Below, one piece after another: positions 3,111-56,943 of a stretch of DNA of 64,000 nucleotides. Position 1 is the stretch's first letter. Each line of letters starts with the position of its first letter. The DNA is taken from the NCBI GenBank assembly GCA_964421875.1, contig CAYQZD010000003.1:2843-66842 (forward strand). The letters run 5' to 3'. The notes beneath the pieces are model-generated. The model had not been told where the DNA came from. It saw only the letters and a list, made by a program, of their open reading frames with translations, and made no database searches. This DNA is from an uncultured bacterium. GTDB lineage: Bacteria; Electryoneota; Tariuqbacteria; Tariuqbacterales; Tariuqbacteraceae. Both the position numbers and the translations under genes were made by a program.

Positions 3111-3173
3111 TCTCTGTATCCGGGTCTCGGGTCTCGGTTTTCGGTTTTCAGTTTTCGGTCTTCGGTCATCTGT
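3111..3173. repeat. 7-nt tandem array A (TYTCNGT units)
   Basis: tctctgt atccggg tctcggg tctcggt tttcggt tttcagt tttcggt cttcggt catctgt, all in phase. The right end overlaps the pcm stop (3173-3175). Confidence 0.85.
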
Positions 3174-3892
3174 CAATCTTCCGGATGAACCATCGGCACG
3201 AACCTGACCGGCAGTAAATCCCGGCGCGTGATTCCTCTTTCGGTCTTAGTGTAGAGACGAAGCATTTGGAAATACTCACCTTCCGGAACTATCAAACTTC
3301 CTCCCGTTTTAAGTTGGTCGAGCAGAGTCTGCGGAACTTCCGGGGGAGCGGCTGTAAGTATAACGCGGTCGAATTTGATGGTGGTGTCCGGCCAGCCTAA
3401 ATACCCGTCGCCAGCCAGCACCCGCACATTATCATATCCCAGGCGCATCAACCGCAAAGTTGCGGTTTCCGCGAGTTCGGGGACGATTTCGATGGAACAG
3501 ACCAGTGAGCAAAGCTCCGCCAGCACCGCCGCCTGGTAGCCGGAGCCGGCGCCGATTTCCAATACCGTTTCTCCGCCTTTCAGCTTCAACGCCTGGGTCA
3601 TAAAAGCGACGATGTAGGGCTGGGAAATGGTCTGGCTGTAACCGATGGGAAGGGGATGGTCGGCGTAGGCTTGGCTCAGGTATCTCTGCGGAACAAACTT
3701 GTGCCTGGGGACTTTGGCCATCACTTCAAGCACCGCAGGGTCGTAGATGCCGCGGCTTTTAAGCTGGTTCGCGACCATCTCCAGGCGTTTCTGCCGGTAA
3801 TGCTCCTCACTGCGGTTTTCATCCTGGGAGCAGGCAGAGAACGCTAAGCAGGTTGTCAGAATCAGGCAAAAGTATATTTTTCGATGAAACAC
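3173..3892 (-). CDS. pcm: Protein-L-isoaspartate O-methyltransferase with N-terminal signal peptide
   Basis: GYSQTISQPYIVAFM and SAM motif VLEIGAGSGYQAAVLAEL. N-terminus MFHRKIYFCLILTTCLAFSACSQD looks like a signal peptide with a possible lipobox Cys. Confidence 0.9.
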   Translation of the reverse strand: MFHRKIYFCLILTTCLAFSACSQDENRSEEHYRQKRLEMVANQLKSRGIYDPAVLEVMAKVPRHKFVPQRYLSQAYADHPLPIGYSQTISQPYIVAFMTQALKLKGGETVLEIGAGSGYQAAVLAELCSLVCSIEIVPELAETATLRLMRLGYDNVRVLAGDGYLGWPDTTIKFDRVILTAAPPEVPQTLLDQLKTGGSLIVPEGEYFQMLRLYTKTERGITRRDLLPVRFVPMVHPED

Positions 3893-3899
3893 TGTTGAA

Positions 3900-3934
3900 G
3901 TCTCGAGTCTCGTGTCTCAAGGCTCGGATTTGAG
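3900..3934. repeat. 7-nt tandem array Q (GKCTCNN units)
   Basis: gtctcga gtctcgt gtctcaa ggctcgg atttgag. Starts 8 nt upstream of the pcm start. Confidence 0.7.
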
Positions 3935-3960: not shown

Positions 3961-5880
3961 TCAACCGGTTCTCGCCAACATCCGCTCAATCCGAGATTTA
4001 ATTCTCAGCCCGGAAAGAGGTTTGTCCATCCGGTTTTTGACAATTCCGATTATTTTATCTACTGAACCGATATCACCGTTCAGGCTGTCGATTACATCCT
4101 GCGCCGCCTGGTCGATTTCCTCGTCGGAAGCGCCGGCGCTTTCAAGCGACGAAAACGCTTCCTCCCAGTTCCCGTCTTCACTACCCATTTTCAACAACTC
4201 TATCCCCACTTCCTTCGATAACTTCTTCTTACCGACAAGTTCCAGAAACTGTTCAATCTCTTCAGCAGAGAATCCACTGCTGTTCAACCGGGCGATATGA
4301 GGAATATCCTGTACTGTCAGCCGAGCCATTGTTTTTGCTGATTGCGGATAACGCTCCGCCGCTTTTTCGAAAGGTTCGAGGTATTTTGAATGCACCAAAT
4401 TCCAGGCGGTTTCTTCAGGAACACCGAGATTAGTGAACCGCTCGGTCTTTACCCAGGGTGTCTGCGGCAGTCCGGCGGATACTTTTTCAATCATCTCGTC
4501 GGTGACGGAGGTAGGGGGAGAATCGGTGTCGGGATACATCCGGTCGGGACCGGGTAAAATCCGTTCGAAGTCGGATACGCCGAAGGGCCGGTATTGGCGG
4601 GTTTCGTTTATCACGCCCTTGAGGATTTCCTGACAGCGGATGATTATCTCATTCATCGCGGTATCGACATCCTGAGGCAGCCCCCAGGACAGCGCGATAA
4701 CATCTTTGGAACCAGCCTCAAACAGTCCCAGAACCTTCTCCCGGTCTCTATCGGAAAGCGACATCGCATCATCCGGATCGGTGTGAGCGATATTGGGCAT
4801 CCGGTCGAGACAGGCGATTACCCGCACCCGGGCGGCGGCTTCCGAAGCGAAATTCCAGCCGGGATTCAGCTTGAAGGCGAATACTCCTTTGAGGTTCTTA
4901 AGCATAACACCCTTGACCTTAGAATTAGGTCCAAAGTTCTCTTTCAAGACAGGGGATTCGATTTCCTCCGCTTCAGCCGTTATGTCCTTCACCTCGTATC
5001 TAACATCCGCTTCCGTCTTAATTCCCCTGCGGGCAGTTTCGTCCCGCAATTCCAGCAGATGCTTCTGGCGCAGGGCTTCGAAGCCGGTGAGTCTGGGGAT
5101 ATATGACAGCCTGGGCACACCCTTGATTTCCACTCTATCGCCGCCCTCGACGGAAACGTTGACGTCCTGGCGGGCGGAGCCTGCGCCGCGTCGGACTTTA
5201 CCGGTGAGCCGGAGTAATGCGCCTAATACTCCGCCTACTTCCGCAGCTTCCAGCGGGTCGCGCATATCGGGCGCTGTGACCACCTCTATCAGCGGCATCG
5301 AGAGCCGGTCGGTGAGGAAAGTGATGCGGTGGCCGACGTCGGATACTTCGCGGCAGGCGTCCTCCTCCAGCGCCAATTGGACGATGCGGATTTTACGGTC
5401 TTTATAGGGAATCCATCCGTCCACACCCACGATAGTGGTGCGCTGGAAACCGGTGGGGATGCTGCCGTCCAGGTACTGCTTGCGGATGATGTGGATTTCG
5501 CCCACGATTTTGCAGTTGAGCAGGAGGGCGATTTCCAAGGCGATGTCCAGCGCTTCCCGATTGATAGGGAAAGGCGGGGTGTCGTCCATCTCATAGGTGC
5601 AGACCGATTCCTTGTTCAGACGGTAGATTATGTCCTTCTTAGTTTTGAACTCCATTAAGGCGGTGCCGTCATATTCTCCCAATTCCGAAAGCGTAGGGCG
5701 CATATGGCGCAAAACTTCGGACTGGTATTCATCGGAGTATTTCCCTGCGGGACAGCGGCAAAACAGCTTTTTATCGGTTTTTATCTGATGGTGAATTTCC
5801 AGACCGCAGCGGAAGCCCAGCGCGTGAAAGTCAACCCCTTCGAGCCCTCCGGCGCGGTTGAATGTGAATCTTTGCTTCAT
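3961..5880 (-). CDS. gatE: GatE-like Glu-tRNA(Gln) amidotransferase subunit E homolog (archaeal type)
   Basis: 639 aa. GLEIHHQIKTDKKLFCRCP, MRPTLSELGEYDG, YEMDDTPPFPINREALDIALEIALLLNCK and IRKQYLDGSIPTGFQRT match GatE rather than GatB, which has RKNYFYPDxPKxYQISQ. The length and a C-terminal GatB/YqeY-like tail also fit GatE. Confidence 0.75.
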   Translation of the reverse strand: MKQRFTFNRAGGLEGVDFHALGFRCGLEIHHQIKTDKKLFCRCPAGKYSDEYQSEVLRHMRPTLSELGEYDGTALMEFKTKKDIIYRLNKESVCTYEMDDTPPFPINREALDIALEIALLLNCKIVGEIHIIRKQYLDGSIPTGFQRTTIVGVDGWIPYKDRKIRIVQLALEEDACREVSDVGHRITFLTDRLSMPLIEVVTAPDMRDPLEAAEVGGVLGALLRLTGKVRRGAGSARQDVNVSVEGGDRVEIKGVPRLSYIPRLTGFEALRQKHLLELRDETARRGIKTEADVRYEVKDITAEAEEIESPVLKENFGPNSKVKGVMLKNLKGVFAFKLNPGWNFASEAAARVRVIACLDRMPNIAHTDPDDAMSLSDRDREKVLGLFEAGSKDVIALSWGLPQDVDTAMNEIIIRCQEILKGVINETRQYRPFGVSDFERILPGPDRMYPDTDSPPTSVTDEMIEKVSAGLPQTPWVKTERFTNLGVPEETAWNLVHSKYLEPFEKAAERYPQSAKTMARLTVQDIPHIARLNSSGFSAEEIEQFLELVGKKKLSKEVGIELLKMGSEDGNWEEAFSSLESAGASDEEIDQAAQDVIDSLNGDIGSVDKIIGIVKNRMDKPLSGLRIKSRIERMLARTG

Positions 5881-8113: not shown

Positions 8114-8305
8114 CTACGAAATGTATCCCAGGCCTTGCAGGCGTTTCTTGACTTCCTCGTCGGATTCGGCTTCATCAAGAATGGTAACTTCCTTTTCAAT
8201 CAAATGCTGCACGAATTCGTCCATCGAAGAATAGCCGGCTTGTTCCGACAAAGTCTTCAGTTTTTCCGCGATGTCGGAATCGAGCTTTATTTTGAGTTTT
8301 GCCAT
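8114..8305 (-). CDS. Small hypothetical protein, ribbon-helix-helix-like
   Basis: 63 aa. The pattern of a beta strand (KLKIKLDSD) followed by two helices resembles CopG/Arc RHH. Lies 6 nt upstream of the 7268-8107 gene. Weak call. Confidence 0.45.
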   Translation of the reverse strand: MAKLKIKLDSDIAEKLKTLSEQAGYSSMDEFVQHLIEKEVTILDEAESDEEVKKRLQGLGYIS

Positions 8306-8407: not shown

Positions 8408-8512
8408 TGTTACTGTTCTCCGTTCTCTGTTCTCCGTTCTCTGTTCTCCGTTCTCCGTTCTCCGTTCTCTGTCTTCGGTTCTCGGTTTTCGGTCTTCGGC
8501 GCTCGGTGCTCA
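8408..8512. repeat. 7-nt tandem array B (GTTCTCY grading to GTYTTCG), 15 units
   Basis: A G opens every unit at 8415, 8422, ... 8506 without a phase slip. The array ends 1 nt before the stop codon (8514-8516) of the AP-family lipoprotein gene. Confidence 0.9.
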
Positions 8513-8513
8513 T

Positions 8514-10499
8514 CTACTGAAATATCGGTTCCCCCACCATATCGTCCGGGATGTCAATCCCGAACTCAGTAAGTATGGTGGCGGTCAAATCGTAGAGCGC
8601 GGGGGCTTCTTTGTCGATATGGCGGTTGGACAGCAGCACACCGGGCACCCATTGATTGTCCACACAGTGGTCGCCGCTCCAGCGGTCCTGGTTATCGGAA
8701 TAGATATGACGCGGAAATTTACCCAGCACCGTATCCCAGGAAGCCCGGTAGCCGGTGTTATAGCCCACTATGAGGTCGGGAGCGTTGGGAACGTCGGCGC
8801 CGCGGTAAGCTTCCTCCCTCTTCCAGACCCGGGAGATGGGATGCTGTCCGGTGCGGGGGTCGATAGCGGCGGTGAGTTTTTCTACCAGCTCTTCCTTGAG
8901 TTCCTCGGCTTCCGCCCGGGAGACATTACCGCCGCTTTCGCGGCCCCTTATATTGAGATAAAGGCTGTTGATGCCCAATCCATAAGCTTTGGTCTTGCGC
9001 CAGTTCACCCCGGGGAAAAATTCCCTACCGCGCCCTGAAGTGTCCTTCAGCGAAATATAACCATTATCCAGCAGCCAGGTGTTGAGGTCGAAGCAGTACC
9101 TGAAGGGCGCGAAACCGTGGTCGGACATTATCAGCAGTAAATCTTCGGGATTCATTTCGCTCAGCACACGCCCTAAAACCTCATCCATCGTCCGATAAAA
9201 CTCCATCAAACGCCAGCCGTATTTGTGCTCCAGCTCGCTTTGATAAAGCGGGTGTTCCCGGTCGAAGGTGGACCATAGGCTGTGGCTGTTCTGGTCCAAG
9301 GTGGAAAAGTAGAAGAGATAGAAACCGTCTTTAAAATTGCGCCAGGTGTAATCGAATTCCCGCAAACGGTCTTCCAGCACCAACTCCGCCTGTTGAATGA
9401 ACTCGTCATAAGTGAGATACCCGGCGGAGAGGGCTTTGGTGTCCTCCGGGATACCAAGGGTGTAAAAGTAACCCAGGTTTTGATAAAGCTCCTTCGTGTA
9501 TTCCGGCGGAGTGGACAGCGGCAAAGCGGGATCTGCGGGATTCAGGTTCACCGGACTGCAGTAAAGTTCCAGGTGCGGTTTTGTCCTCCGCAGGTAAAAG
9601 CGCACAATACCGGAAGCGGAGGCGATGGATTTCAACAATTCGAATTTCACTTCCACCCAATCGCTCCATTCGCCCGGCTTAAGGATGAAATCGCTCTCCC
9701 CCGTTTTGATGCGGGCGATATCTTCATAGGGATCGATGTAAATCGACACCGGCGCAACCGCGGTCGGTTCCTCTTTAAGCAGCGAGTTGGGGGGACCTTC
9801 GATCGCAGTTTCCACCATCCCCTCCTCGATTTTCACCATCGCAACCTCGCCGCCGGCGATATCATCCTGATAAAGCGAGGAATCGTCGGTGAAAAAGGTG
9901 AAAATACCATAGGAGCCGAGGATATCGGGGGTGCCCATCCCGGAAAAGGTCTTAGCTTCAGTCTCAGCCGGGGGAAAATTCGCCGGGATTTTAAACAACA
10001 CCGAGGGTATCCCCTGCTCCTCCAATATCTGCCAGAAAGCTTTGCCTTTGCGGTAAAGCACCGCTTCACCGCCCTTCAGGGGGATGCGGTATTTGCCCAG
10101 TTTCAGGATATTCGAGGGGGGCGTCATTCCGCTGGTGGATAAATAAGGGATGCGGGATTGAGGTTCGCGGTGGATAAAGTCATAGATTCCGTGCCCGCCG
10201 GGATTCATTCCGGTGATGAAATTAGACCAAGCCACCGGGCTTTGCGGAGGAACGCTGGTGGTCAATTCCTTGAAAGAGCCTTCAGCCGCCAGCCGGCTGA
10301 AGTTGGGCATCACGCCGCGCTCCATAAAATTGGTCAAGAGTTTGGGGTCCATCCCGTCGATGCCCAGCACAATCACCCGCTTCCCCACTGGTTTGAAATC
10401 CCCTCCGCCGCAGGAAATCAGGAAGAGCGTTAAAAGAAATAGCGGGGTGATTAACCACCCCTCGAGAAATAGTCGGTGTTTATTTCGAAATCTTATCAT
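8514..10499 (-). CDS. Alkaline phosphatase superfamily protein (nucleotide pyrophosphatase/phosphodiesterase-like), lipoprotein
   Basis: 661 aa. VIVLGIDGMDPKLL metal-site motif, SDHGF, WSGDHCVD. N-terminal lipobox LFLISCGGG. Paralog of the upstream gene, with a 20-nt overlap. Confidence 0.8.
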   Translation of the reverse strand: MIRFRNKHRLFLEGWLITPLFLLTLFLISCGGGDFKPVGKRVIVLGIDGMDPKLLTNFMERGVMPNFSRLAAEGSFKELTTSVPPQSPVAWSNFITGMNPGGHGIYDFIHREPQSRIPYLSTSGMTPPSNILKLGKYRIPLKGGEAVLYRKGKAFWQILEEQGIPSVLFKIPANFPPAETEAKTFSGMGTPDILGSYGIFTFFTDDSSLYQDDIAGGEVAMVKIEEGMVETAIEGPPNSLLKEEPTAVAPVSIYIDPYEDIARIKTGESDFILKPGEWSDWVEVKFELLKSIASASGIVRFYLRRTKPHLELYCSPVNLNPADPALPLSTPPEYTKELYQNLGYFYTLGIPEDTKALSAGYLTYDEFIQQAELVLEDRLREFDYTWRNFKDGFYLFYFSTLDQNSHSLWSTFDREHPLYQSELEHKYGWRLMEFYRTMDEVLGRVLSEMNPEDLLLIMSDHGFAPFRYCFDLNTWLLDNGYISLKDTSGRGREFFPGVNWRKTKAYGLGINSLYLNIRGRESGGNVSRAEAEELKEELVEKLTAAIDPRTGQHPISRVWKREEAYRGADVPNAPDLIVGYNTGYRASWDTVLGKFPRHIYSDNQDRWSGDHCVDNQWVPGVLLSNRHIDKEAPALYDLTATILTEFGIDIPDDMVGEPIFQ

Positions 10500-15879: not shown

Positions 15880-16917
15880 TTACAGACTACTTCCAATCTT
15901 TTTTAAAGCCCTGCACACATTCTCCACCTCTTCATCGTTCAAATCGGGATAGCAGGGAATCGAGACCGCGGTCCTATGAATTTCTTCCGTCCCTAAAAAT
16001 CCTTCCAAACCGAGGTAACGGTGAATCGGATTGAACACCGGACACGCGGCGGTCACTCCCTCGTCTCGGAAACAGTTAATCACCTCCGGAATTTCATCGC
16101 AAAATATCAGATATCTAAAATATATATCACCTTCCGGTCGGTGAACTCTGCGAAATCCGGTCTCATCGACCGCTCTGTTATACCGTTCCGCAATGAACTG
16201 CCGCCGCTTGATGAAATCCGGCAGTTTTCCCAACTGAACTCTCGCTATCGCCGCCTGAATTTCGGTCATCTTATAGTTGAAGCGGGGATAGTATTGAGCT
16301 TTATGGTCGTAATCTCTCAAGTCGCGCATCCACGCCAGCAGCTCCCCACTATCAGACGCCACCGCACCGCCCTCGCCGGCGCAGAGAACCTTGGTGGCAT
16401 AGAATGAAAACACCGAAATTTCCCCGATGGTTCCCGTCAATTTTGAACCAATACGCGCGCCAATAGACTGCGCGCAGTCCTCCACCACTCGAATTTCCAA
16501 CTCCTTGATTTTATCCGCGGGAGCCGGCGTTCCAAACATATGGGGGAGGATAACGGTATCTGCAGCGCTGCTGATTCTCCGCTTCAAATCGGTAACATCG
16601 ATGTTGCCGGAGACCGGGTCAACATCGCAGACAGAGGGTTCTGCGCCGCAATAGTTGACCGCATTCAGCAATGCGTTGCATACATAAGAGGGAATATGCA
16701 CCCGCGAATCCCCCTTAACACCCAAAGCCAACAGCGCCAGATGCAGACCCGCGGTGCCGCTGGAAACCGCCGCCGCTCCCTTAACTCCTAAGAACCGGGC
16801 GAGTTCACGTTCCAACGCTTCAACTTCGGAGCCCTGGGACACAAATCCAGACATAATCACTTTCTGCGCAGCGGCCGCCTCTTCTGGACCAATCGAAGGT
16901 CTGGAGTGGGGAATCAT
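15880..16917 (-). CDS. DegT/DnrJ/EryC1/StrS family sugar aminotransferase
   Basis: 345 aa. SGTAGLHLALLALG, VVEDCAQSIGA, FSFYATKVLCAGEGG (PLP lysine context). Confidence 0.9.
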   Translation of the reverse strand: MIPHSRPSIGPEEAAAAQKVIMSGFVSQGSEVEALERELARFLGVKGAAAVSSGTAGLHLALLALGVKGDSRVHIPSYVCNALLNAVNYCGAEPSVCDVDPVSGNIDVTDLKRRISSAADTVILPHMFGTPAPADKIKELEIRVVEDCAQSIGARIGSKLTGTIGEISVFSFYATKVLCAGEGGAVASDSGELLAWMRDLRDYDHKAQYYPRFNYKMTEIQAAIARVQLGKLPDFIKRRQFIAERYNRAVDETGFRRVHRPEGDIYFRYLIFCDEIPEVINCFRDEGVTAACPVFNPIHRYLGLEGFLGTEEIHRTAVSIPCYPDLNDEEVENVCRALKKIGSSL

Positions 16918-31510: not shown

Positions 31511-32158
31511 TTATACTCTCAAATTCACCTTTTTGATTCCGCCTTTAAAACGCCGCATACCGCCCCCCTCGCTGACCGCCCGCAATACTAACGAAAAATC
31601 CATCACCTTCACCCCTGAAACCAAAGTCACCGATGTGTTACGAAAAGGTTCCACAATCATCGGAGCGGAAGCCCCCAAAATCACGGTTTCCCGGCAGTTA
31701 CAACAAGCGGCGAGCAACCCGTCTATAGTGTCGTTCACAATGGAAGTGGCGGTGATTATCGCGGCGTCGCATCCCGGCAGCAGTGAATGCGCTTGCTCCG
31801 CCGGTAGCATCCCCGGACTGGCGTTCCCCTCGATTTCGAAAATGAGCAGCCGTTTCACCCGGGACTTCAGATCCGGAACCAGCGGCTCGAAATGCCCCAC
31901 CATCCCCACCGTGTCCTCCGGTTTCAAGGTAACCAAACGCCGGGTGTCGCCCGGTGTGAAATCCGGCTTCAGGGTGAGGGCGAGGGCGTTCGCAGTTGCT
32001 AATCCCACCGCCCGCTGAATCTGAACCGGCGATTCCAGCATCGCCAGCAGCTCTCCCGCCGCACTACCTGCAAGAGAAATCCGCCCCGGAAAATAGCGGC
32101 ATCCACGCGGAATAATATCCAAAAATGTGTATGCCAGTCCTATCTCACCGCTATCCAA
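31511..32158 (-). CDS. DUF364/DUF4213 family protein (putative chelation/Rossmann-like); 5' end uncertain
   Basis: The track ORF starts at TTG 32158. The family-like N-terminus (..VSDVRIGLTYTAVKLDSGEIGLAYTF) continues in frame upstream into the heptamer array, with no ATG/GTG/TTG there. Confidence 0.7.
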   Translation of the reverse strand: MDSGEIGLAYTFLDIIPRGCRYFPGRISLAGSAAGELLAMLESPVQIQRAVGLATANALALTLKPDFTPGDTRRLVTLKPEDTVGMVGHFEPLVPDLKSRVKRLLIFEIEGNASPGMLPAEQAHSLLPGCDAAIITATSIVNDTIDGLLAACCNCRETVILGASAPMIVEPFRNTSVTLVSGVKVMDFSLVLRAVSEGGGMRRFKGGIKKVNLRV

Positions 32159-32256
32159 CTTAACTGCAGTGTAAGTGAGGCCGATGCGAACATCGGAGAC
32201 CGTTTCGTTCTCAGCGGCGGCGGAAAAAGCCTCGACAAGGCTTCGCTTTATGTTAT

Positions 32257-32340
32257 ATTCAGGATTCAGGATTCTGGATTCTGGATTCTGGATTCTGGAT
32301 TCTGGATTCAGTATTCAGTATTCAGTATTCAGTATTCTTC
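32257..32340. repeat. 7-nt tandem array C, 12 units (2x ATTCAGG, 4x ATTCTGG, 5x ATTCAGT, 1x ATTCTTC)
   Basis: Perfect 7-nt phase from 32257. Ends at the nucleotide before the OPT stop codon (32341-32343) and runs into the open frame of the DUF364 gene. Confidence 0.95.
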
Positions 32341-34362
32341 CTATTCTTCCGCTTTGGCGCGGGTAGCGTCCCAATAGATATAGATACCCAGCAGGATAAA
32401 TACTATCAGCCCCAGCCAGTTGCCCGCCTGCCCGATATTTTTCAAATCGGGAACTAAGGTCATTTGGAACTTGTCCTCGAAGAACTTGAACAAGGCTCCT
32501 ACCACGCCGATGATGGCTCCCCCCGCGATGAGTCCGGAAGCGATAAGGATGCCCTTTTCGTGGCGGGACTTGGCGAGTTTCTCCTTCTTGGAGGATTTTT
32601 TCACCAGCCAGGCGACGATCGCCCCGGCCATTATCGGTGAATTGAGTTCTATGGGGAGGTACATCCCCAATGCGAACGCCAGCGCGCTCACGCCTAACAT
32701 CTCAACAATAATAGCGAAGATTACTCCCAGTCCGTAGAGGAACCAGGGCGCCTGCCCCCCGCCCATCAATCCGTCGATGACCGCCGCCATCGCGTTAGCC
32801 TGCGGAGCCGGCAGAGGATTGGGATGCGCCGGCGAAGGGGAATAGCCATAAACGTGAGCCAGCAGGATTATGACCGCCGTTACGGTTATCGAGGCGGCGA
32901 CACAACCCCAGATGTTAGACCACTCGATCGACTTGGGGGTTGAACCCAGCCAGTAACCGATTTTGAACTGAGTGACCAGACTCCCCGCCATCGACAAAGC
33001 GGTGCAGACCACCCCCCCGATTAATATAGTGGCGAGCATACCCTCCTTGCCGCTCATCCCAAGCTGAGACAGCAACACTGCGGACACAATCAAGGTCATC
33101 AGCGTCATCCCGGAAATAGGAGTCACACTAATCATCGCCACCGCCCAGGCGGATACGGAGATGAAGAGGAAGGCGATAACCAAGGTTAATAGAATCGACA
33201 CTATGGACAATCCGGTGGCGCCTTCCATCCCGCTGAGCACCACAAATCGGAAATAGACCCAAATGAGGAGGGTGACAGCGATAATCATACCGATAACCAG
33301 CGACATTGGGATGTCGCGATCGACGCGGCTTTGCCCGGCGGATTCGTCGCGGTCGCGTTTGCGGAACACTTCCTTCAGCGCCTGAGAAAAAGCGCTGACG
33401 ATGACCTTCGACATCTTTAAAATAGAAATGACCCCGGCGGCGAAAATGCCCCCGATACCCACATAGCGGGCGTAATGGTAGAAAACGTCCTCTGCGGGCA
33501 TTTCAGCTATCGGCGAAGGTCCTGGTGGTATAATCGTTCCCGCAGGAAGAAAACTGCCTAAATAAGCGAACAACGGCGTCAGCACAAAAAACGACATCAC
33601 CGACCCGGCTAAGATGATGGAAGCGTACCGCACGCCGATAAGATATCCCAGCCCCATAATAGCGGCGGAGGTGTTGAGGCTGAATACCAGCTTCACCTTA
33701 AGCGTGAAGAAGTCGAAAAGGCTTATCATCGAAGTGGAGAAACTCTCCGCCCAGGCGCGCATCGAAATGGAGAGGAAATCGTAAACCGCGCCGATACCGA
33801 TAGCGTATGCTAAGATTTTCGCCTGCTTGCCACCCTTTTCCCCCACCACCAGCACTTCGGTGATGGCAGTGCCTTCGGGGAAAGGAAGTTTGCCGTGCTG
33901 GTCGGAGACAAAGTAGCGCCTGAAGGGAATCAGAAACAACACCCCTAATATCGCGCCCAATAATGGAACCAGAAAAATCTGGAAAAAGTTGGTGTCGAGA
34001 TCTAACACGAAAATCGCCGGCATCACGAACACCGACCCGCCCGCTACAATCCCGGAAGTCGCCCCCACCGCTAAAATATTGATATTCTCCAACAGGGTGC
34101 TCTTGCGCGCCAGCATCGCGGAAAATCCCACAGCGAGAATGGAGATGGGGATGGCGCTTTCGATGCCCTGCCCTAATTTCAACGCAATATATGACGCCGC
34201 ACCGGAAAACAAAAGGGTCATTACCAGCCCGAATAGCACCGAGCGGACTGTGACTTCAAGGAAGCCTTTCTCCTTGCTGATGACGGGAACATACTTTTCC
34301 CCCGGCTTCAATTCCCGGTAAGCGTTTTCGGGGAGCCGCATCTTATTCGAATTATCAGCCAT
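32341..34362 (-). CDS. OPT family oligopeptide transporter
   Basis: 673 aa polytopic. N-terminus RLPENAYRELKPGEKYVPVI and the overall topology are typical of bacterial OPT proteins. Confidence 0.85.
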   Translation of the reverse strand: MADNSNKMRLPENAYRELKPGEKYVPVISKEKGFLEVTVRSVLFGLVMTLLFSGAASYIALKLGQGIESAIPISILAVGFSAMLARKSTLLENINILAVGATSGIVAGGSVFVMPAIFVLDLDTNFFQIFLVPLLGAILGVLFLIPFRRYFVSDQHGKLPFPEGTAITEVLVVGEKGGKQAKILAYAIGIGAVYDFLSISMRAWAESFSTSMISLFDFFTLKVKLVFSLNTSAAIMGLGYLIGVRYASIILAGSVMSFFVLTPLFAYLGSFLPAGTIIPPGPSPIAEMPAEDVFYHYARYVGIGGIFAAGVISILKMSKVIVSAFSQALKEVFRKRDRDESAGQSRVDRDIPMSLVIGMIIAVTLLIWVYFRFVVLSGMEGATGLSIVSILLTLVIAFLFISVSAWAVAMISVTPISGMTLMTLIVSAVLLSQLGMSGKEGMLATILIGGVVCTALSMAGSLVTQFKIGYWLGSTPKSIEWSNIWGCVAASITVTAVIILLAHVYGYSPSPAHPNPLPAPQANAMAAVIDGLMGGGQAPWFLYGLGVIFAIIVEMLGVSALAFALGMYLPIELNSPIMAGAIVAWLVKKSSKKEKLAKSRHEKGILIASGLIAGGAIIGVVGALFKFFEDKFQMTLVPDLKNIGQAGNWLGLIVFILLGIYIYWDATRAKAEE

Positions 34363-34403: not shown

Positions 34404-34438
34404 AGCCGGCAGTCGGCAATCGGTAATCGGCTGTCGGC
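34404..34438. repeat. 7-nt tandem array N (NNTCGGC)
   Basis: agccggc agtcggc aatcggt aatcggc tgtcggc. Lies about 40 nt upstream of the OPT start. Confidence 0.75.
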
Positions 34439-34440
34439 TT

Positions 34441-39321: not shown

Positions 39322-39384
39322 GTGAATGGTGTATAGTGATTAGTGTCTGATGATTGGTGCTTAGTGTTTGGTGTATGGTGTCAC
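39322..39384. repeat. 7-nt tandem array K (GTGNNTR), 9 units; inverse complement of the CACCAAN arrays
   Basis: GTG/ATG at 39322, 39329, ... 39378 in exact 7-nt phase. Overlaps the in-frame region upstream of the antiporter TTG start. A degenerate second block lies at 39461-39512. Confidence 0.9.
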
Positions 39385-43043: not shown

Positions 43044-43085
43044 GCAAATCGAATATCACAAATCAAAAATCGAAAATCGAAAATC
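43044..43085. repeat. 7-nt tandem array E1 (NAAAATC)
   Basis: gcaaatc gaatatc acaaatc aaaaatc gaaaatc gaaaatc. Confidence 0.85.
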
Positions 43086-43118
43086 ATAGCCACTATAGCC
43101 ACCATAGCCAGTGAATCC
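43085..43118 (+). repeat. ATAGCC nonamer block + AGTGAATCC
   Basis: CATAGCCACTATAGCCACCATAGCCAGTGAATCC. Confidence 0.85.
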
Positions 43119-43126
43119 TTCTTCAC

Positions 43127-43189
43127 TAAACCCTATACCCTAAATCCTTTATCCTTTACCCTAAACCCTATACCCTAAACCCTAAGTAA
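43127..43189. repeat. 7-nt tandem array F (TWWAYCC), 9 units
   Basis: taaaccc tataccc taaatcc tttatcc tttaccc taaaccc tataccc taaaccc taagtaa. Confidence 0.9.
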
Positions 43190-43228: not shown

Positions 43229-43235
43229 TTGAACC

Positions 43236-43297
43236 GTAGGGTGGGTTCTTAACCCACCAATTTACAAATCCTTCCCCCTAACCGGAATCCCTCTTAA
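43236..43297 (+). repeat. PU1 + degenerate PU2 (start of duplicated block U2)
   Basis: GTAGGGTGGGTTCTTAACCCACCAATTTACAAATCCTTCCCCCTAACCGGAATCCCTCTTAAG. Near-identical to 42967-43028. Confidence 0.9.
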
Positions 43298-43311: not shown

Positions 43312-43353
43312 GCAAATCAAATATCACAAATCAAAAATCAAAAATCGAAAATC
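43312..43353. repeat. 7-nt tandem array E2 (NAAAATC)
   Basis: gcaaatc aaatatc acaaatc aaaaatc aaaaatc gaaaatc. Confidence 0.85.
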
Positions 43354-43406
43354 ATAGCCATAACAGCCGTAACCTGTCAGCCTTCCGGCTGATAGCCAGT
43401 GAATTC
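43353..43406 (+). repeat. ATAGCC nonamer block + AGTGAATTC (with an inserted hairpin)
   Basis: CATAGCCATAACAGCCGTAACCTGTCAGCCTTCCGGCTGATAGCCAGTGAATTC. Confidence 0.8.
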
Positions 43407-43410
43407 TCTT

Positions 43411-43483
43411 CACCAGCCCCCAGCACACCAAGCACCCAGCACCTATCCCCAACCACCAATCACCAAACACCTGTAAACCGCCA
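43411..43483. repeat. 7-nt tandem array G (NCACCAA), about 10 units
   Basis: caccagc ccccagc acaccaa gcaccca gcaccta tccccaa ccaccaa tcaccaa acacctg taaaccg. Ends at the stop codon (43484-43486) of paralog B. Confidence 0.9.
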
Positions 43484-45133: not shown

Positions 45134-45189
45134 GTAGGGTGGGTTCTTAACCCACCAATTTACAAGTCATTCCGGCGCAGCCGGAATCC
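45134..45189 (+). repeat. PU1 + PU2 composite
   Basis: GTAGGGTGGGTTCTTAACCCACCAATTTACAA + GTCATTCCGGCGCAGCCGGAATCC. Confidence 0.95.
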
Positions 45190-45195
45190 CTCCTC

Positions 45196-45221
45196 GTAGG
45201 GGCGGATCCCCGTATCCGCCC
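45196..45221 (+). repeat. GTAGG-headed hairpin
   Basis: GTAGGGGCGGATccccgtATCCGCCC, with 7-bp stem GGCGGAT/ATCCGCC. Confidence 0.85.
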
Positions 45222-45252
45222 TCTCCCTAAACGCCCCTACCGGCGGCAGGTG

Positions 45253-45281: not shown

Positions 45282-45314
45282 CATAGCCATAATAGCCGTA
45301 ATAGCCAGTGAATT
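45282..45314 (+). repeat. ATAGCC nonamer block + AGTGAATT
   Basis: CATAGCCATAATAGCCGTAATAGCCAGTGAATT. Confidence 0.9.
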
Positions 45315-45916: not shown

Positions 45917-45941
45917 GTAGGTCGGCTTATTCAAAGCCGAC
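45917..45941 (+). repeat. PU6 hairpin GTAGGTCGGCTTATTCAAAGCCGAC
   Basis: GTAGG head, stem GTCGGCTT/AAGCCGAC. Copy 1 of 3. Confidence 0.9.
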
Positions 45942-45947
45942 AAACAT

Positions 45948-45976
45948 CCCCGGCGGGTCTGAATAGCCCACCCTAC
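45948..45976 (-). repeat. PU7
   Basis: The plus strand reads CCCCGGCGGGTCTGAATAGCCCACCCTAC. Confidence 0.8.
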
Positions 45977-46010
45977 AAATAGCCATAATAGCCGGAATAG
46001 CCAGTGAATT
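45977..46010 (+). repeat. ATAGCC nonamer block + AGTGAATT
   Basis: AAATAGCCATAATAGCCGGAATAGCCAGTGAATT. Confidence 0.9.
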
Positions 46011-46015
46011 CACAT

Positions 46016-46050
46016 TACCAACCACCATCCACCAAACACCAAACACCAAG
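46016..46050. repeat. 7-nt tandem array H (CACCAAN)
   Basis: taccaac caccatc caccaaa caccaaa caccaag. Ends 3 nt before the transglutaminase-like gene's stop (46054-46056). Confidence 0.85.
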
Positions 46051-46053
46051 CGC

Positions 46054-47628
46054 CTACCACCAGACCTGATTGCCGTTTTCAACGGTGAAAATTCGTTCCT
46101 CCTTATCGGAACCTTCCGCTGTCAGCCAGTACAGGAGTCCTGCAGGGACTCCGTGAAACACAAGCGGCTCAGCCCCGGCGACCGACTTTCCCAGCGACAC
46201 CCAGCTATCCCGCCAATAGAACAGTTCATACTCCTGTCCGGGTGTGAAAAACACCTTTTCGATTCCATCCGTTGAGATTACCTGTTTTCTGCGGGTGGTG
46301 GAGATTAATCTAACCGATATGGTCTTATCGCCTTTAGGCTGCAGTTCCCGGATACTGGAGTCCGTATGAAGGATGAAGGGATTGGCAAACGGCGCTATTT
46401 CTCCCTCGATATAGAGCACCGGCAGATAGGCTATATCCAACCCCATATCGGAAAAGACAACCTCTCCGTCGACAATCTTCCCCCAGTGAATCGCCTTCCA
46501 TTCCCCGGAATTGAATACACATAAATATCCTATATTTGCCGAGTCGGAAACATCTCTTGCCAAAGGGATGGTCACATCACAAACATCGACATAGTCCGCG
46601 GTGACATCGATATAGCTTTTGCCGGAAATATACTTGGGCGTCTTCTCCTGCTTCCTCTCCTGAAAGGCGAGATTTTCCTTTTGTTCGGAGAACATCTTGC
46701 GATAGACCTTTGCCAGTTTATTCGCCAGATGATATTTACTCGGATTTCTTTCCGCCCCCATGAATGGAATGACCCTGCCATCAGGGGTGACAATCGCATT
46801 CCACGCGTGATTGTTGCCGGTATTCGCCCAGTAAGGCGTGTAGTCGCTGGTGACCGCCAAGCCGTTAGCCCGCATGGCGTAGATGGTTAAATTTGTCATA
46901 TCCTCGCACCGTCCCATACGGTTTTCCAGCATTTCCGATAATCCCTGATCGACCGGATGATAATAGAAGCGCGAGTCGAATGAAAACCAGGACTTGATAT
47001 CGTCGTTGATAATACAAGCGGCTTCGATAGGGTCGGAAGAATCGCTCATCCTGCTTTCAATATCTTCATATTTATGCCAAAAGAAATCACGCCAGGGTTC
47101 CAGCGGTTCATTGCTCCCGCGATAGGGAAGAACATACTCGCAGAAACTGCTAAAAGAATGCCCCTCCGCCCACGGTTTTTCTTGCCAGGCTTTGAAAGCG
47201 TAGTCTATCTGCGTGACCAGAAAATCTAAGCTGATGGTCTGATAATCATATATCTTTTCCTTCTTCCTGAAGTCAAGTTCACCATACTGAACTTCCAATG
47301 AGTCGCAGTGTGCCTTCATCGTACTAAAATCCGGGTAGTCCAGGACATTGAAATCGATATGTGTTCCTGCGCTGTCAATCAGGTCATAAGTTACATAACA
47401 GTGATTCTTAATGTTGGCGATTAGGTAGAATAATGCCTCCAGTTTCAGCGAATCGCCTTCAAGAGTATAGTGGGATATCGCTTTTTCCAGTTCTATACGG
47501 TTTTCTCCTGCCGCCTCGATTACTTCGGTAACTACCGGCGGATAAACCGCTGTCTCCCCGCCGAATGCGCAAAGTAGAGGCAGCAGCATTGCAAGAAAGA
47601 CCAAAACTAATATGTGTCTATTATTCAT
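46054..47628 (-). CDS. Transglutaminase-like domain protein (secreted)
   Basis: The ATG at 47628 gives a signal peptide (MNNRHILVLVFLAMLLPLLCAFG). Cys-His-Asp core context MGRCEDMTNLTIYAMRANG..NNHAWNAIV. The track ORF's first 20 codons are repeat-derived. Confidence 0.75.
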   Translation of the reverse strand: MNNRHILVLVFLAMLLPLLCAFGGETAVYPPVVTEVIEAAGENRIELEKAISHYTLEGDSLKLEALFYLIANIKNHCYVTYDLIDSAGTHIDFNVLDYPDFSTMKAHCDSLEVQYGELDFRKKEKIYDYQTISLDFLVTQIDYAFKAWQEKPWAEGHSFSSFCEYVLPYRGSNEPLEPWRDFFWHKYEDIESRMSDSSDPIEAACIINDDIKSWFSFDSRFYYHPVDQGLSEMLENRMGRCEDMTNLTIYAMRANGLAVTSDYTPYWANTGNNHAWNAIVTPDGRVIPFMGAERNPSKYHLANKLAKVYRKMFSEQKENLAFQERKQEKTPKYISGKSYIDVTADYVDVCDVTIPLARDVSDSANIGYLCVFNSGEWKAIHWGKIVDGEVVFSDMGLDIAYLPVLYIEGEIAPFANPFILHTDSSIRELQPKGDKTISVRLISTTRRKQVISTDGIEKVFFTPGQEYELFYWRDSWVSLGKSVAGAEPLVFHGVPAGLLYWLTAEGSDKEERIFTVENGNQVWW

Positions 47629-47825: not shown

Positions 47826-47885
47826 TTTGTGTTTCGATTGGGGTATGCGCAATCTTCTAACCCTATGTTTCACCATTTCACCGTT

Positions 47886-50144
47886 TCACCGTTTCAACGC
47901 CTCCAACACCTTTTCCGGCGTAATAGGCAGACTGCGGATGCGAACCCCGATGGCGTCATAGACAGCATTGGCGATGGCGGCGGCGGTGGGAACCATCGGC
48001 ATCTCCCCCACACCCTTAGCCCCGAAAGGCCCTTCAGGGTCGATAGTCTCGACGAAAACTTTCTCAATTTCGGGAACGTCCAGCGGGGTCAGCATCTTGT
48101 AATCGGCGAAATTGGGGTTTTGGACTGCGCCTTCCTTCAATTGAATGTTCTCCAACAGCGCGTAGCCCACGCCCTGCGCCACGCCGCCTTCGACCTGCCC
48201 CTCCAGCGTCATCGGATTAATCACCCGCCCCACATCGTGAGCCGCCACGATTTTCAACACCTTGACCTGCCCTGTCTCCAAATCCACCTCCACTTCAGCC
48301 GACTGCGCCCCGAAACCGTAAGTGGCGGAAATATTCCCGTCCCAATGCTTGTCCTGCATCACCGTGGGCGGGTCGTAGAAATATTTCCCCACCACCACAT
48401 CGCCCCCCTCCCGAAAATGCCGCGCCCGAACCACTTTGCCATATGGCAGCGTCTTCGAAGGGTCGGATTTCATATAGACCTTGCCGTCCTTAATATCGAG
48501 GTTCTCCACCGGCTCCCCGGTCATCTTAGAAGCGGCTTCCAAAATCTGCCGCTTGGCGTCCAAAGCCGCCTTCACTACCGCGTTACCGGCGATAAAGGTG
48601 GTGCGGGAAGCGTGCACCCCCACATCCCAGGGGGAAGTGTCCGTGTCCTGCCAATCCAGAGTCACATTCTCCACCGGAACCGCTAAAGTCTCCGCCGCCA
48701 TCTGAGTCAACACCGCATCAGAACCCTGACCGATTTCCGTGGAACCGGAAATCACTGTAACATGCCCGAAATCATCCACCTTGACCATACACCCGCACCC
48801 GTCGGAACGGTAAATCCGCGCCCCCCCCCCCACATGAAGGCCGGCGGCGACTCCGGTTCCCCGGGCGATAGGCCCCTTACGCGCCCGCTTCTCGTTCAGT
48901 CTGATGCGCGCTGAGGCTTCTTCTATGCACTCCTTCAGCCCGCAGGAGGTGAACACCATCTTCTGCGGGGTGACATCGCCGGGGCGATTAGCGTTCATTA
49001 TGCGGAATTTCAGCCGGTCCATCCCCAACATCTCCGCTAATTCGTCCATCTGAGATTCCACCGCCAAAGTCGCCTCAGGATTGCCAAATCCCCGCATCGC
49101 CGAACCATAAGGATTGTTAGTGTAAACTATGTCCGCCTCGAATAAAATGTGCGGCACGCGGTAGAGCGAAGACACCGTCTGCATCGAAATAATCGGCGTA
49201 ACATTCCCCCAGGAATTGTAAGCCCCGTTGTCCCCCATAATGTAAGCTTGCCGCGCGGTCAGTTTCCCCTCCTTATCGACCCCGGTCTTCATATCGATAA
49301 CCATCGGCGGACGCGGCGGAGAATAGCGGAATTCCTCCTCCCGCGAATACTCCATCTTCACCGGCTTACCGGCGGCTTTCGCCAGCAAGGCGGCGATGAT
49401 TTCGTAGGGATAAAGGTCCAGCTTGGAGCCGAAACCGCCGCCGATAGCGGTCTGAATCACCCGAACCTGGCTCCCCTTAATCCCCAAAACATCCGCCATA
49501 TCCTTCTGGTACAAAAACGGCACCTGAGTCATCGAATACATCGTCAGCCTGCCGTCAAATCCCCATTCCGCCGCGCAGGCGCAGCTCCCCAAACAGCAAT
49601 GCGCCTGGAAAGGCAGTTCGAAACGCCCTTCGGCGACATACTCCGCCTCGCCGAAACCCCGCTCCACATCGCCGTAATCGTAACTGTAGCGGACCGACAA
49701 ATTCCCGGAGCTGCCCTCGTGAATCTGAGGCGCCCCCGGCTTAACCGCCTCGAAAGGATCGAACACCGCAGGCAGCTCTTTGTACTCGACCTTAATCAGC
49801 GAAGCCGCTTTCCGCGCCGCAATCTCATTGTCTGCCGCCAACGCCGCAATCTCGTCCCCCCGGCACTTCACCCGACCGAACTTCAGCGGATAATTATCCT
49901 TTCCGTAGCCGAATGGGATTTTCGGAGTGTCGTCAGCGGTAATAATCACCTTGACTCCCGGAACTTTGCGCGCCTGCTCAAGATCGATAGATAAAATCTC
50001 CGCATGAGCGAAATCGCTGCGCTTTATCGCGCCGAATAGCATCCCCGGCAGCGTCAAGTCGTGAGCGTAAACCGCGGCGCCGGCAGCTTTAGCCGGAGCG
50101 TCCGGTTTGGGGACGCGCTTGCCAATGTGGGTAAAATCAGTCAT
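47886..50144 (-). CDS. Molybdopterin-binding large subunit of a xanthine dehydrogenase/aldehyde oxidoreductase/CoxL family enzyme
   Basis: 752 aa. N-terminus IGKRVPKPDAPAKAAGAAVYAHDLTLPGMLFGAIKRS, GGGFGSK, and a C-terminal GAKGVGE motif. Confidence 0.9.
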   Translation of the reverse strand: MTDFTHIGKRVPKPDAPAKAAGAAVYAHDLTLPGMLFGAIKRSDFAHAEILSIDLEQARKVPGVKVIITADDTPKIPFGYGKDNYPLKFGRVKCRGDEIAALAADNEIAARKAASLIKVEYKELPAVFDPFEAVKPGAPQIHEGSSGNLSVRYSYDYGDVERGFGEAEYVAEGRFELPFQAHCCLGSCACAAEWGFDGRLTMYSMTQVPFLYQKDMADVLGIKGSQVRVIQTAIGGGFGSKLDLYPYEIIAALLAKAAGKPVKMEYSREEEFRYSPPRPPMVIDMKTGVDKEGKLTARQAYIMGDNGAYNSWGNVTPIISMQTVSSLYRVPHILFEADIVYTNNPYGSAMRGFGNPEATLAVESQMDELAEMLGMDRLKFRIMNANRPGDVTPQKMVFTSCGLKECIEEASARIRLNEKRARKGPIARGTGVAAGLHVGGGARIYRSDGCGCMVKVDDFGHVTVISGSTEIGQGSDAVLTQMAAETLAVPVENVTLDWQDTDTSPWDVGVHASRTTFIAGNAVVKAALDAKRQILEAASKMTGEPVENLDIKDGKVYMKSDPSKTLPYGKVVRARHFREGGDVVVGKYFYDPPTVMQDKHWDGNISATYGFGAQSAEVEVDLETGQVKVLKIVAAHDVGRVINPMTLEGQVEGGVAQGVGYALLENIQLKEGAVQNPNFADYKMLTPLDVPEIEKVFVETIDPEGPFGAKGVGEMPMVPTAAAIANAVYDAIGVRIRSLPITPEKVLEALKR

Positions 50145-50294: not shown

Positions 50295-50320
50295 GTAGGG
50301 GCGAACGGCAGTTCGCCCCT
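50295..50320 (+). repeat. GTAGG-headed hairpin
   Basis: GTAGGGGCGAACggcaGTTCGCCCCT, with a 9-bp stem. Confidence 0.9.
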
Positions 50321-50422
50321 ATCGGTAACTGGTAACCGGTAATAGCCGTGACAGCCTGTGAATCCATCTTCACTAAACACCAAGCATCAAATACCGTTTA
50401 ACTGTTCAAACGTTTCACTATC

Positions 50423-51706: not shown

Positions 51707-51802
51707 CAATTGTGTCGCAGAGTCCCCGCACTCTGCGACATTGCCCCCTCCCGATACATAATATCCTCTAACCTGGTAAAAAAAGATATAACCTTATAAC
51801 TT

Positions 51803-51844
51803 TCACCATTCATCCTTCAGCATTCAGCATTCAGCTTTACCCTA
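51803..51844. repeat. 7-nt tandem array M (CANCNTT)
   Basis: caccatt catcctt cagcatt cagcatt cagcatt cagcttt. Overlaps the pgeF stop (51837-51839). Confidence 0.85.
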
Positions 51845-54392: not shown

Positions 54393-54430
54393 ATACTAAC
54401 GAAATATCCGTAATAGCCTGCGTATCTTTT

Positions 54431-54465
54431 TCACCAACCACCAAACACCAAACACCATTTCCACC
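54431..54465. repeat. 7-nt tandem array I (NCACCAA)
   Basis: tcaccaa ccaccaa acaccaa acaccat ttccacc. Confidence 0.85.
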
Positions 54466-56832: not shown

Positions 56833-56859
56833 ACAGAATTTGTTGGGGGACAAGCATCT

Positions 56860-56943
56860 GTCTTCGGGCTTTGGTCTTCGGTTCTCCGTTCTCCGTTATC
56901 TGTTCTCAGTTCTCAGTTCTCAGTTATCTGTTCTCCGTTATCT
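56860..56943. repeat. 7-nt tandem array D (GTTCTCN / GTTATCT), 12 units
   Basis: gtcttcg ggctttg gtcttcg gttctcc gttctcc gttatct gttctca x3 gttatct gttctcc gttatct. The last unit overlaps the aminotransferase stop (56942-56944). Confidence 0.95.

Follow-up and report, generated by a model that had tools for sequence, protein, structure and literature searches.

Heptanucleotide tandem arrays adjoining stop codons in an uncultured bacterium of the Tariuqbacteraceae

The DNA analysed here, referred to below as the window, is a stretch of 64,000 nt of contig CAYQZD010000003.1 (GenBank assembly GCA_964421875.1, positions 2,843 to 66,842 of the forward strand) from an uncultured bacterium of the family Tariuqbacteraceae, phylum Electryoneota. 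Its coding fraction is 84%, and the spacers between its genes harbour tandem arrays of heptanucleotides, the focal one being located at positions 8408-8513 of the minus strand. The gene upstream of this array codes for a 661-aa protein of the Pfam family Phosphodiest, and an exact-sequence look-up of this protein matched no record. The array begins at the base after the TAG codon of the gene (8514-8516) and comprises about 15 heptamers with zero indels. Read on the gene strand, the stop is followed by the units ATGAGCA, CCGAGCG, CCGAAGA, CCGAAAA, CCGAGAA, CCGAAGA and CAGAGAA, and then by (CGGAGAA/CAGAGAA)x7. Tandem Repeats Finder (TRF) scored the array at 97-115. On its 3′ side lie about 100 nt and then a conserved gene encoding 63 aa (8114-8305).

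Protein searches placed the homologues of the focal protein in a clade of 61-80% identity; below it, identity falls to 54% with a clear gap in between. Among named relatives the closest is a metagenome-assembled genome of Candidatus Tariuqbacter arcticus (Ca. Electryoneota, Fibrobacteres-Chlorobi-Bacteroidetes (FCB) group), with 67% amino acid identity of the focal protein; a secretion-system C-terminal sorting domain (Por_Secre_tail) was detected in a window protein. A genome scan yielded one clade member, on a contig of 2.5 kb, and a metagenome scan with a clade-specific protein yielded 7 loci; flanking sequences were pooled instead. The loci given L-numbers below were fetched from public assemblies and represent the flanks of focal-protein homologues and of other window genes.

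The preliminary description of this DNA, made from the sequence alone, had regarded the arrays as the first nucleotides of 3′ untranslated regions (UTRs). For the focal array a terminal 3′ UTR is improbable and an intercistronic spacer more likely, since the array lies within a conserved gene cluster (phosphodiesterase-family gene followed by the 63-aa gene) and the two flanking genes are only 17-76 nt apart in the four relatives in which they are adjacent. These array-free spacers measure 17 nt in L006 (an 80%-identical relative), 26 nt in L022, 52 nt in L024 and 76 nt in L023. Arrays at the focal junction were found only in the window and in the more distant L001, and their units differ, which implies that the two were probably gained independently.

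The same cluster is interrupted in another way in L009 (and also in L010-L014), where four paralogous genes of about 480-500 aa, each a fusion of N6_N4_Mtase with NA-iREase1 (L009 5469-9948 and 12012-13448), are interspersed among successive genes of the phosphodiesterase cluster, one of them filling the junction occupied by the focal array in the window. Between the stop of the upstream gene and the first of these methyltransferase-endonuclease fusion genes lies an array of GCTAACA units.

The period of seven is a pronounced property of the window. A self-match scan detected 16 runs at period 7 versus 0, 2 and 2 at periods 5, 6 and 8, and with a stricter score 10 runs (521 nt) were left at period 7, one at period 8 and none at periods 4-6 and 9-12. 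Nearly all period-7 rows of the TRF output show 0% indels, in agreement with the phase purity proposed earlier. The arrays total 789 nt, or 7.8% of the non-coding DNA of the window, and just 8 of these nucleotides are internal to open reading frames (ORFs). Far from being equally frequent inside genes, the arrays are essentially confined to non-coding DNA, and their period had already been judged not to reflect coding periodicity, seven not being a multiple of three. Judged by TRF score and period scan, they are head-to-tail repeats of short units longer than expected by chance, i.e. long simple sequence repeats (SSRs), and they are excluded from coding DNA as is expected of units that are not a multiple of three. 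Super-periods of 14, 21 and 28 nt and blocks of identical variants occur within them (TRF, self-match scan).

Every array locus listed in the preliminary description exists (3111/3121, 8408, 56860, 43411, 46016, 54431, 39322, 32257, 51803, 43046/43314, 43126 and 34407), although its count of about 15 arrays of 5-15 heptamers has to be qualified, some of them holding just 2.3-4 copies. Its gene names fit the Pfam matches PCMT, Phosphodiest, OPT, Transglut_core, Cu-oxidase_4 (named pgeF there) and Aminotran_1_2, and the 308-aa gene termed paralog B (stop at 43484-43486) has no Pfam match. The same arrays recur in independent assemblies derived from different samples and pipelines (L009-L012, L024/L025), and therefore they are not artefacts of assembly. 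Four assemblies of one species agree in copy number, and so do two assemblies of another; within each species these possibly represent the same strains.

Six window arrays begin no more than 3 nt before or after a stop codon (3173, 8514, 32341, 46054, 51837 and 56942). A seventh had been counted at 43484, but its clear core begins 12 nt downstream of the stop. To place these observations on a broader basis, 47 non-redundant arrays were pooled from 240 kb of the clade, an array edge within the generous range of -12 to +6 nt was scored as abutting, and uniform placement within the same present-day spacers was simulated as the null. On the stop side 14 abutting edges were found versus 4.2 expected (simulation P about 1e-5), and the enrichment suspected from the window alone is thus borne out in the pooled sequences. 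No enrichment was found on the start side (4 versus 4.2 expected).

In several cases the stop, or the last codons together with the stop, forms the first unit of the array in phase. In the window this is seen in the array at 3121, which opens with TGACAGA TGACCGA (TGAC[AC]GA); among relatives, L001 carries AAAATGA AGAATGG AAAATGA, L004 AAACTGA GAACAGA and L009 GCTAACA GCTAACA. The octamer array at 47867 likewise starts in the last codons of its gene and includes the TGA, so that the behaviour is not strictly bound to period 7. Three-frame stops are present in 7 of the 16 stop-abutting arrays, in line with the earlier remark that some unit types carry no stop triplet; the supply of stops in all three frames was accordingly rejected as a general rule.

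Comparison of orthologous junctions reveals the state before and after the appearance of an array. Downstream of the transglutaminase-like gene, two relatives with 83-84% identity, L026 and L027, read TAG-NCGCTTG-CTGAATTA (in a second rendering, TAG-NCGCTTG-CTGAATTATTTT). The window at the same stop reads TAG-GCGCTTG-(GTGTTTG GTGTTTG GTGGATG GTGGTTG GTAATGT)-GAATT, followed by a dispersed repeat described below as the box. Both flanks are thus kept, the first unit (GCGCTTG) is ancestral, and so is the C-terminus of the protein, QVWW*. The second case is the junction of the OPT and DUF364 genes, which overlap as TGATG in the 88%-identical relative L004 and are separated by an 84-nt array in the window. 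This array opens with a unit (GAAGAAT) that copies the end of the OPT coding sequence, and closes with units alignable to the ancestral DUF364 codons 3-5 (CGA ATT CTG); the ancestral ATG of the DUF364 gene is lost.

In the window the DUF364 frame runs back into this array (32158-32340, minus strand; ..PESRIQNPESRILNPEYNIKR..), and the first ATG, GTG or TTG is met at 32158, 41 codons downstream of the start of the ortholog, although the protein sequence of the intervening stretch is still conserved. The gene thus has either a non-canonical start or a truncated product. The same 5′ stretch contains a terminator-like hairpin, AAGCCTTGTCGAGGCTTTTT. For annotation this means that arrays can erase start codons or supply stops.

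Period-7 arrays occur in most loci of the clade, their number varying between 7 in 17 kb (L018) and 0-1 in some, and two outgroup loci (Aminicenantes, Acidobacteriota) have none. The array load differs sharply even between near relatives: L027-L031, which encode an 83%-identical transglutaminase-like protein and are labelled Zixibacteria in one source, contain zero heptamer arrays in 15 kb, and L026, as close to the window as L027, contains three in 18 kb. At single junctions the picture is the same: the stop of a methyltransferase gene is adjoined by an array in L004 but not in the window. Where relatives lack the array, the junctions are tight (-1 to 26 nt). Spacers between co-directional genes have, according to the gene tables, a median length of about 20-24 nt in L022 and L024, which are poor in arrays, versus 127 nt in the window. 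Judging from orthologous junctions with and without arrays, array turnover proceeds on the time-scale of genus-level divergence.

These observations are best explained, with about as much confidence as doubt on our part, if the arrays are non-coding heptanucleotide microsatellites of the long SSR class, which the tandem heptanucleotides of cyanobacteria resemble, born in place at the stop and filtered by selection. A seed of 7 nt, occasionally 8 nt, would be duplicated in tandem at the 3′ boundary of a gene, and the array so started would be extended by replication slippage as well as by duplications spanning several units at once, yielding the super-periods of 14, 21 and 28 nt; such periods, together with blocks of identical variants, are typical of these two processes. 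Inside a gene an indel of 7 nt would be lethal, and it would do harm where a junction carries the promoter or the site of ribosome binding. With ancestral co-directional junctions of about 20 nt, the sole neutral place would lie at or just past the stop, and a duplicated unit that includes the stop would leave the protein unchanged and hence be neutral. This would be the reason why arrays start at stops, often in phase. Once formed, they would be carried along as the first bases of a 3′ UTR or of intercistronic RNA, with selection acting only against harmful sequence, and a dedicated function would not be required. We thus infer slippage as the generator, neutrality of the duplications and transcription of the arrays.

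In-place birth is supported by the enrichment at stops without enrichment at starts, by the before-and-after ortholog pairs with ancestral flanks, by first units built from the stop or from the final codons with it, by the short spacers of L022 and L024 compared with those of the window, and by an array load that differs so sharply between close lineages and is zero in the outgroups. A published proposal that polymerase slippage underlies the excess of heptamers (Mrazek 2007, as related in PMC4679880 and PMC4692102) also speaks for it. The model accounts for the anchoring and phase at stops, for units that are specific to a locus, for preserved flanks, for rapid gain and loss and for the octamer case. 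The before-and-after pairs favour a mutational origin filtered by selection and lead to the prediction that, genome-wide, arrays adjoining a stop are found chiefly at junctions that were short in the ancestor.

Several findings weigh against this explanation. The gene-side edges of the arrays are sharp rather than decaying: gradual decay into the coding region was not seen, in-phase consensus matches upstream of the core being 2.8, 2.1 and 2.0 of 7. No copy-number polymorphism was detected between independent assemblies, though these probably represent the same strains. The sense strand of the 16 stop-abutting arrays is purine-rich and C-poor (A 36%, G 29%, T 20%, C 16%; of the 16, purines make up more than 50% of the sequence in 14, and G outnumbers C in 12), which points to a constraint at the level of RNA or linked to transcription. 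Ten pairs of arrays share an identical unit consensus (any rotation, either strand) versus 1.1 +/- 1.0 expected, and the matches between genomes at non-orthologous sites include CCCTAAA, GAGACTC, GCTGAAT and GCGAGTT. A GA-rich core, GARA[AC], occurs in 9 of the 47 consensus units versus 2.9 expected, a pattern chosen post hoc. Unit classes recurring across loci and genomes are not predicted by a purely local seed, and several arrays are physically tied to the conserved box. Moreover, nothing accounts for the period being 7. In-place birth on its own therefore leaves the recurring unit classes, the sense-strand bias and the number 7 unexplained.

A functional RNA element is a rival explanation that we consider unlikely. 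The arrays would then be transcribed and form an unstructured multivalent platform, to be bound by a protein (of the cold-shock-domain, S1 or CsrA type) that covers about 7 nt of single-stranded RNA and controls re-initiation on the next cistron, mRNA decay or the exclusion of Rho after termination. The purine-rich, C-poor sense strand of 14 of the 16 arrays and the recurrence of unit classes are as expected of such a platform, and little structure is predicted for the sense RNAs (-0.5 to -12 kcal/mol). Placement close to stops on the coding strand is also found in unrelated phyla (PMC4692102), binding of S1, Csp or CsrA was proposed by MacGregor for TAACTGA repeats (PMC4679880), and expression of Nostoc recF and recO is affected by heptamer repeats (bioRxiv 10.1101/2022.06.06.494920). 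However, at least six unrelated unit types per genome would call for a very tolerant binder or for several of them, and the absence of arrays from the orthologous junctions of close relatives, and throughout one 83%-identical lineage, marks them as dispensable. The number of copies varies between 2 and 15 without a favoured length, and some arrays are reversed in orientation or lie upstream of starts.

As for folding, most arrays were predicted to be unstructured, and only marginal structure was predicted in the focal array and in that at 56855, namely weak CCG/CGG ladders with sense z values of -2.2 and -3.0 (focal antisense -3.7); in the focal RNA, helices of 3 bp (CCG:CGG) join the two halves. 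These ladders are regarded as incidental to the presence of two variant-unit blocks. Both arrays (8408-8513 and 56855-56943) hold a CCGAAGA-type and a CGGAGAA-type block, in reversed order relative to each other. The variable triplets CCG/CGG in these two arrays and CAG/CTG in that at 32257-32340 are mutually reverse-complementary, giving rise to weak periodic 3-bp ladders (z -2.2 to -3.7). No match to Rfam 15 was obtained at the gathering threshold anywhere in the window.

An origin of the arrays from small mobile mosaic elements has to be weighed because of the box, a dispersed repeat of the general form TTCACTGG(C/A)(T/A)AT, after which come 2-3 repeats spaced 9 nt apart (NNNGGCTAT). The arrays would be a by-product or component of such elements, either edge repeats of the box TTCACTGGCTAT with its 9-mers or a product of the insertion site. 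Stops would be abutted because the element inserts just downstream of genes, and the box would resemble a terminal inverted repeat. All six solo box copies of the window lie on the gene strand with a heptamer run (TTGGTGN or TTTAGGG) directly 5′, and diverged copies come after the GA-rich arrays at 3121 and 8408. For this reason the three loose sequence families distinguished previously, although real as loci, are partly one thing, the TTGGTGN and TTAGGGT arrays always being the 5′ neighbour of the box. The box is conserved across genera of the clade and forms inverted pairs of about 85 bp in L001 and L007 that resemble a miniature inverted-repeat transposable element (MITE). At the transglutaminase-like locus the array sits exactly between the stop and the point of box insertion, in L006 inverted octamer arrays flank an intergenic element containing the box, and mobility would explain why the units TTTGGTG, TTTAGGG and TTTAGTG recur at several loci. 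Yet no box is found near the arrays at 32257, 51802, 56855, 34407 and 3899, nor near most arrays of the relatives, and only about half of the box copies of the clade have an adjacent array. Inspection of the box ends found no target-site duplications, and the units at the OPT junction match ancestral local sequence. We hence regard this origin as improbable.

The broader idea that stop-anchored arrays are a convergent functional RNA device of cyanobacteria, Xanthomonas, Beggiatoaceae, Bacteroidota and Electryoneota, an unstructured and purine-rich platform refractory to Rho, seems a long shot. If true, an abundant single-strand-binding protein with a 7-nt register would govern the fate of ribosome and mRNA just after termination, and the rapid turnover of arrays would represent tuning of intercistronic coupling.

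A directional transcription insulator is very unlikely. Rho prefers C-rich, G-poor, unstructured RNA, so that a purine-rich sense RNA with G>C would resist Rho loading and keep the operon intact, and the antisense RNA, rich in C and in pyrimidines overall (T, C, A and G at about 36, 29, 20 and 16%, the complement of the sense composition), would load Rho and halt antisense transcripts before they reach the 3′ end of the gene. Scans with consensus promoters and terminators revealed no excess over shuffled sequences, and the 20 intrinsic terminators in spacers versus 18 expected would suit this role. However, the bias partly mirrors the skew of the entire window, the gene strand of which is G-rich throughout, C exceeds G on the sense strand in 4 of the 16 arrays, and a 7-nt period has no known relation to Rho.

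Finally, a DNA structure (G-quadruplex (G4) or triplex), or a hypermutable contingency switch of the kind by which SSRs drive phase variation in pathogens, altering the spacing or expression of neighbouring genes, is highly improbable: despite G4-forming heptamer repeats being documented for Xanthomonas and Nostoc (PMC4692102), only the TTTAGGG array at 43126-43185 fits the G4 motif, for which reason G4 formation was rejected, and the neighbouring genes are housekeeping ones, copy numbers are identical between independent assemblies (possibly of the same strains), and the arrays follow stops instead of lying in promoters or ORFs.

The canonical units of the short tandemly repeated repetitive (STRR) sequences STRR1-3 are CCCCAGT, TTGGTCA and CAACAGT. 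Neither in the window nor in the fetched loci was a tandem dimer of any of them found on either strand, and the window contains no tandem dimer of TAACTGA. Identity with the canonical STRR, TAACTGA or GGGAATC units was thus rejected, all being absent, and the arrays fall outside those named families as members of the general class. In the literature search, neither a description of these repeats in this lineage nor a paper establishing a role of heptamer arrays adjacent to stops was found. The notion of STRR-like arrays outside cyanobacteria, under which the arrays were first described, is already covered by reports on Xanthomonas (PMC4692102) and on Beggiatoaceae and Bacteroidetes (PMC4679880).

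According to Mrazek, Guo and Shah (2007), as cited in PMC4679880 and PMC4692102, long SSRs with units of 5-11 nt are over-long tandem repeats, intergenic and phylogenetically sporadic, among which heptamers are the most abundant in many bacteria. The window arrays share these features; in those citations the class is descriptive and has no positional rule, to which the ortholog pairs of the window add birth anchored at stops, not a new class. The closest counterparts are the heptamers of Xanthomonas and Nostoc (GGGAATC / GGGGAYT; Rehm 2015, PMC4692102), which are dispersed, intergenic and transcribed, comprise 2 to 26 units and lie mostly 0-50 bp past the stop on the coding strand, some overlapping it. 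As in the window, the G-rich strand is the sense strand there, length and sequence vary between close relatives, and no tie to surface or virulence genes exists; no function was assigned. Those genomes have one dominant G4-forming unit and a preference for four units, whereas the window, from a different phylum, shows many unit types, mostly not capable of forming G4 (only the array at 43126-43185 fits the motif, in which each unit has a G-tract of at least 3 and four units can fold into a quadruplex), and no favoured copy number; its 0-50 bp placement past stops is the same.

The cyanobacterial STRR, of which three heptanucleotides were described in Calothrix PCC 7601 (Mazel et al. 1990, as cited in PMC4692102), are likewise tandem, intergenic and present as many dispersed arrays with several unit families per genome. 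They differ in their canonical units and in their heterocystous hosts, and anchoring at stops is not part of their definition. MacGregor (2015, PMC4679880) reported TAACTGA and other heptamer direct repeats, intergenic as here, in marine Beggiatoaceae, some cyanobacteria and five Bacteroidetes, the last of these being members of the FCB group, with syntenic close relatives lacking repeats at the same junction. In Bacteroidetes long arrays were mixed with other heptamers, and one set of seven repeats lay immediately past a stop. The TAACTGA repeats consist of a single unit, mostly 1-43 nt upstream of starts in forward orientation and usually in 2-6 copies, unlike the window arrays, which are biased to stops without enrichment at starts. 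To these reports the present case adds a further host lineage, a variety of unit types within a single genome, anchoring at stops resolved to the base and the ortholog pairs indicative of birth in place. The phenomenon is thereby extended to an uncultivated lineage of the FCB group, with the same anchoring at stops as reported in Xanthomonas and Nostoc.

All arrays of the window and the small repeats associated with them are compiled in Table 1.

Table 1. Positions of heptamer and octamer arrays, box copies and hairpins in the window and of box copies in relatives
Feature	Position	Strand	Detected by	Context
Focal heptamer array, CCGAAGA grading into CGGAGAA/CAGAGAA	8408..8513	-	TRF, self-match scan, comparison with relatives	
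Array TGACAGA TGACCGA AGACCGA AAACTGA AAACCGA...	3121..3175	-	TRF, self-match scan	TGA stop of pcm (PCMT, 3173-3175) inside first unit; diverged box GAGAATTGATAGGTATGGCTGTTATTATGG next
Short array GAGACAC GAGACTC GAGACTT	3899..3925	-	TRF, self-match scan	6 nt upstream of pcm start, about 35 nt past stop of GatB_N-domain gene; unit recurs in L007 at a non-orthologous site
12-unit array GAAGAAT, ACTGAATx4, CCAGAATx5, CCTGAATx2	32257..32340	-	TRF; comparison with L004	Directly follows OPT TAG (32341-32343), extends into 5′ end of DUF364 gene
Short array CCGACAG CCGATTA CCGATTG CCGACTG	34407..34439	-		44 nt upstream of OPT start, no stop adjoining
Degenerate array GTGNNTR (plus strand; CACCAAA-like on gene strand)	39322..39381	.	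TRF, self-match scan	Upstream of Na/H-exchanger gene; TTGGTG family, reversed orientation
TTGGTGN-type array	43411..43483	-		After stop 43484-43486 of 308-aa gene; degenerate units bridge the 12 nt between stop and core; box TTCACTGGCTAT directly after
GATTTTY array	43314..43354	-		3′ of box and 9-mers; composite duplicated in tandem
TTTAGGG-type array	43126..43185	-		Directly 5′ of second box copy
Second GATTTTY array	43046..43086	-		In the duplicated composite
TTGGTGT array	46017..46056	-		After TAG (46054-46056) of transglutaminase-like gene, between stop and box
Octamer array GAAACGGT x3.8	47867..47896	-	TRF	First unit formed by last two codons and start of TGA; molybdopterin-oxidoreductase gene (stop 47886-47888)
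Short GGTTACC-type array	50324..50342	-		3′ of variant box
TTGGTGT/TTTAGTG run, 2-3 units	about 50365-50390			5′ of variant box at 50351
GCTGAAT array	51802..51836	-		Starts 1 nt after TAA (51837-51839) of Cu-oxidase_4 gene
TTGGTGN array	54432..54457	-		5′ of variant box, no stop adjoining; in 650-nt spacer separating divergent genes
12-unit array AGATAAC, GGAGAAC, TGAGAAC, then CCGAAGA	56855..56943	-		AG of aminotransferase TAG stop (56942-56944) in phase with first unit
Box TTCACTGGCTAT with GGCTATNNN 9-mers	45978..46009	-	Recurrence in window and across genera	
Further box copies	43085-43116, ~43355-43404, 45283-45313, 50351-50363 (variant), 54413-54425 (variant)	-		
Box copies in relatives	L001 241-325, 2471-2484; L004 2976-3005; L006 ~16415-16450; L007 14669-14753; L015 1620-1650			
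REP-like hairpins	45180-45245, 50295-50330, 56810-56840, 43230-43262, 45930-45955	-		

Besides the arrays, the spacers of the window are mosaics of other small repeats. Hairpins ending in CCTAC (GTAGG plus a palindrome on the other strand), such as TAGGGGCGAACTGCCGTTCGCCCCTAC and GGTGGGTTAAGAACCCACCCTAC, resemble repetitive extragenic palindromes (REP) and recur in many spacers. This suggests elements of the REP or REPIN (REP doublet forming a hairpin) type, perhaps with a REP-associated tyrosine transposase elsewhere in the genome. The arrays themselves, being direct repeats with weak folding, do not belong to the REP, bacterial interspersed mosaic element (BIME) or MITE types, but the sequences neighbouring them do, namely the GTAG-headed hairpins and the inverted box pairs.

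In L006 the spacer between the GatB_N-domain gene and pcm measures 446 nt and is bounded by two inverted octamer arrays, (AAGTCNNC)x5 at 16330-16385 and (GACTTGNN)x5 at 16675-16715. It also holds a box copy and two hairpins, and as a whole resembles a composite element with tandem-repeat termini. In the window the GatB_N-domain gene (3961-5880, minus strand) encodes a protein of 639 aa, in which the match to the 277-position profile extends over residues 25-465. Such a span points to an extensive insertion of the kind present in archaeal GatE, and would be out of the ordinary for a bacterium; the protein is conserved among the relatives (577-644 aa).

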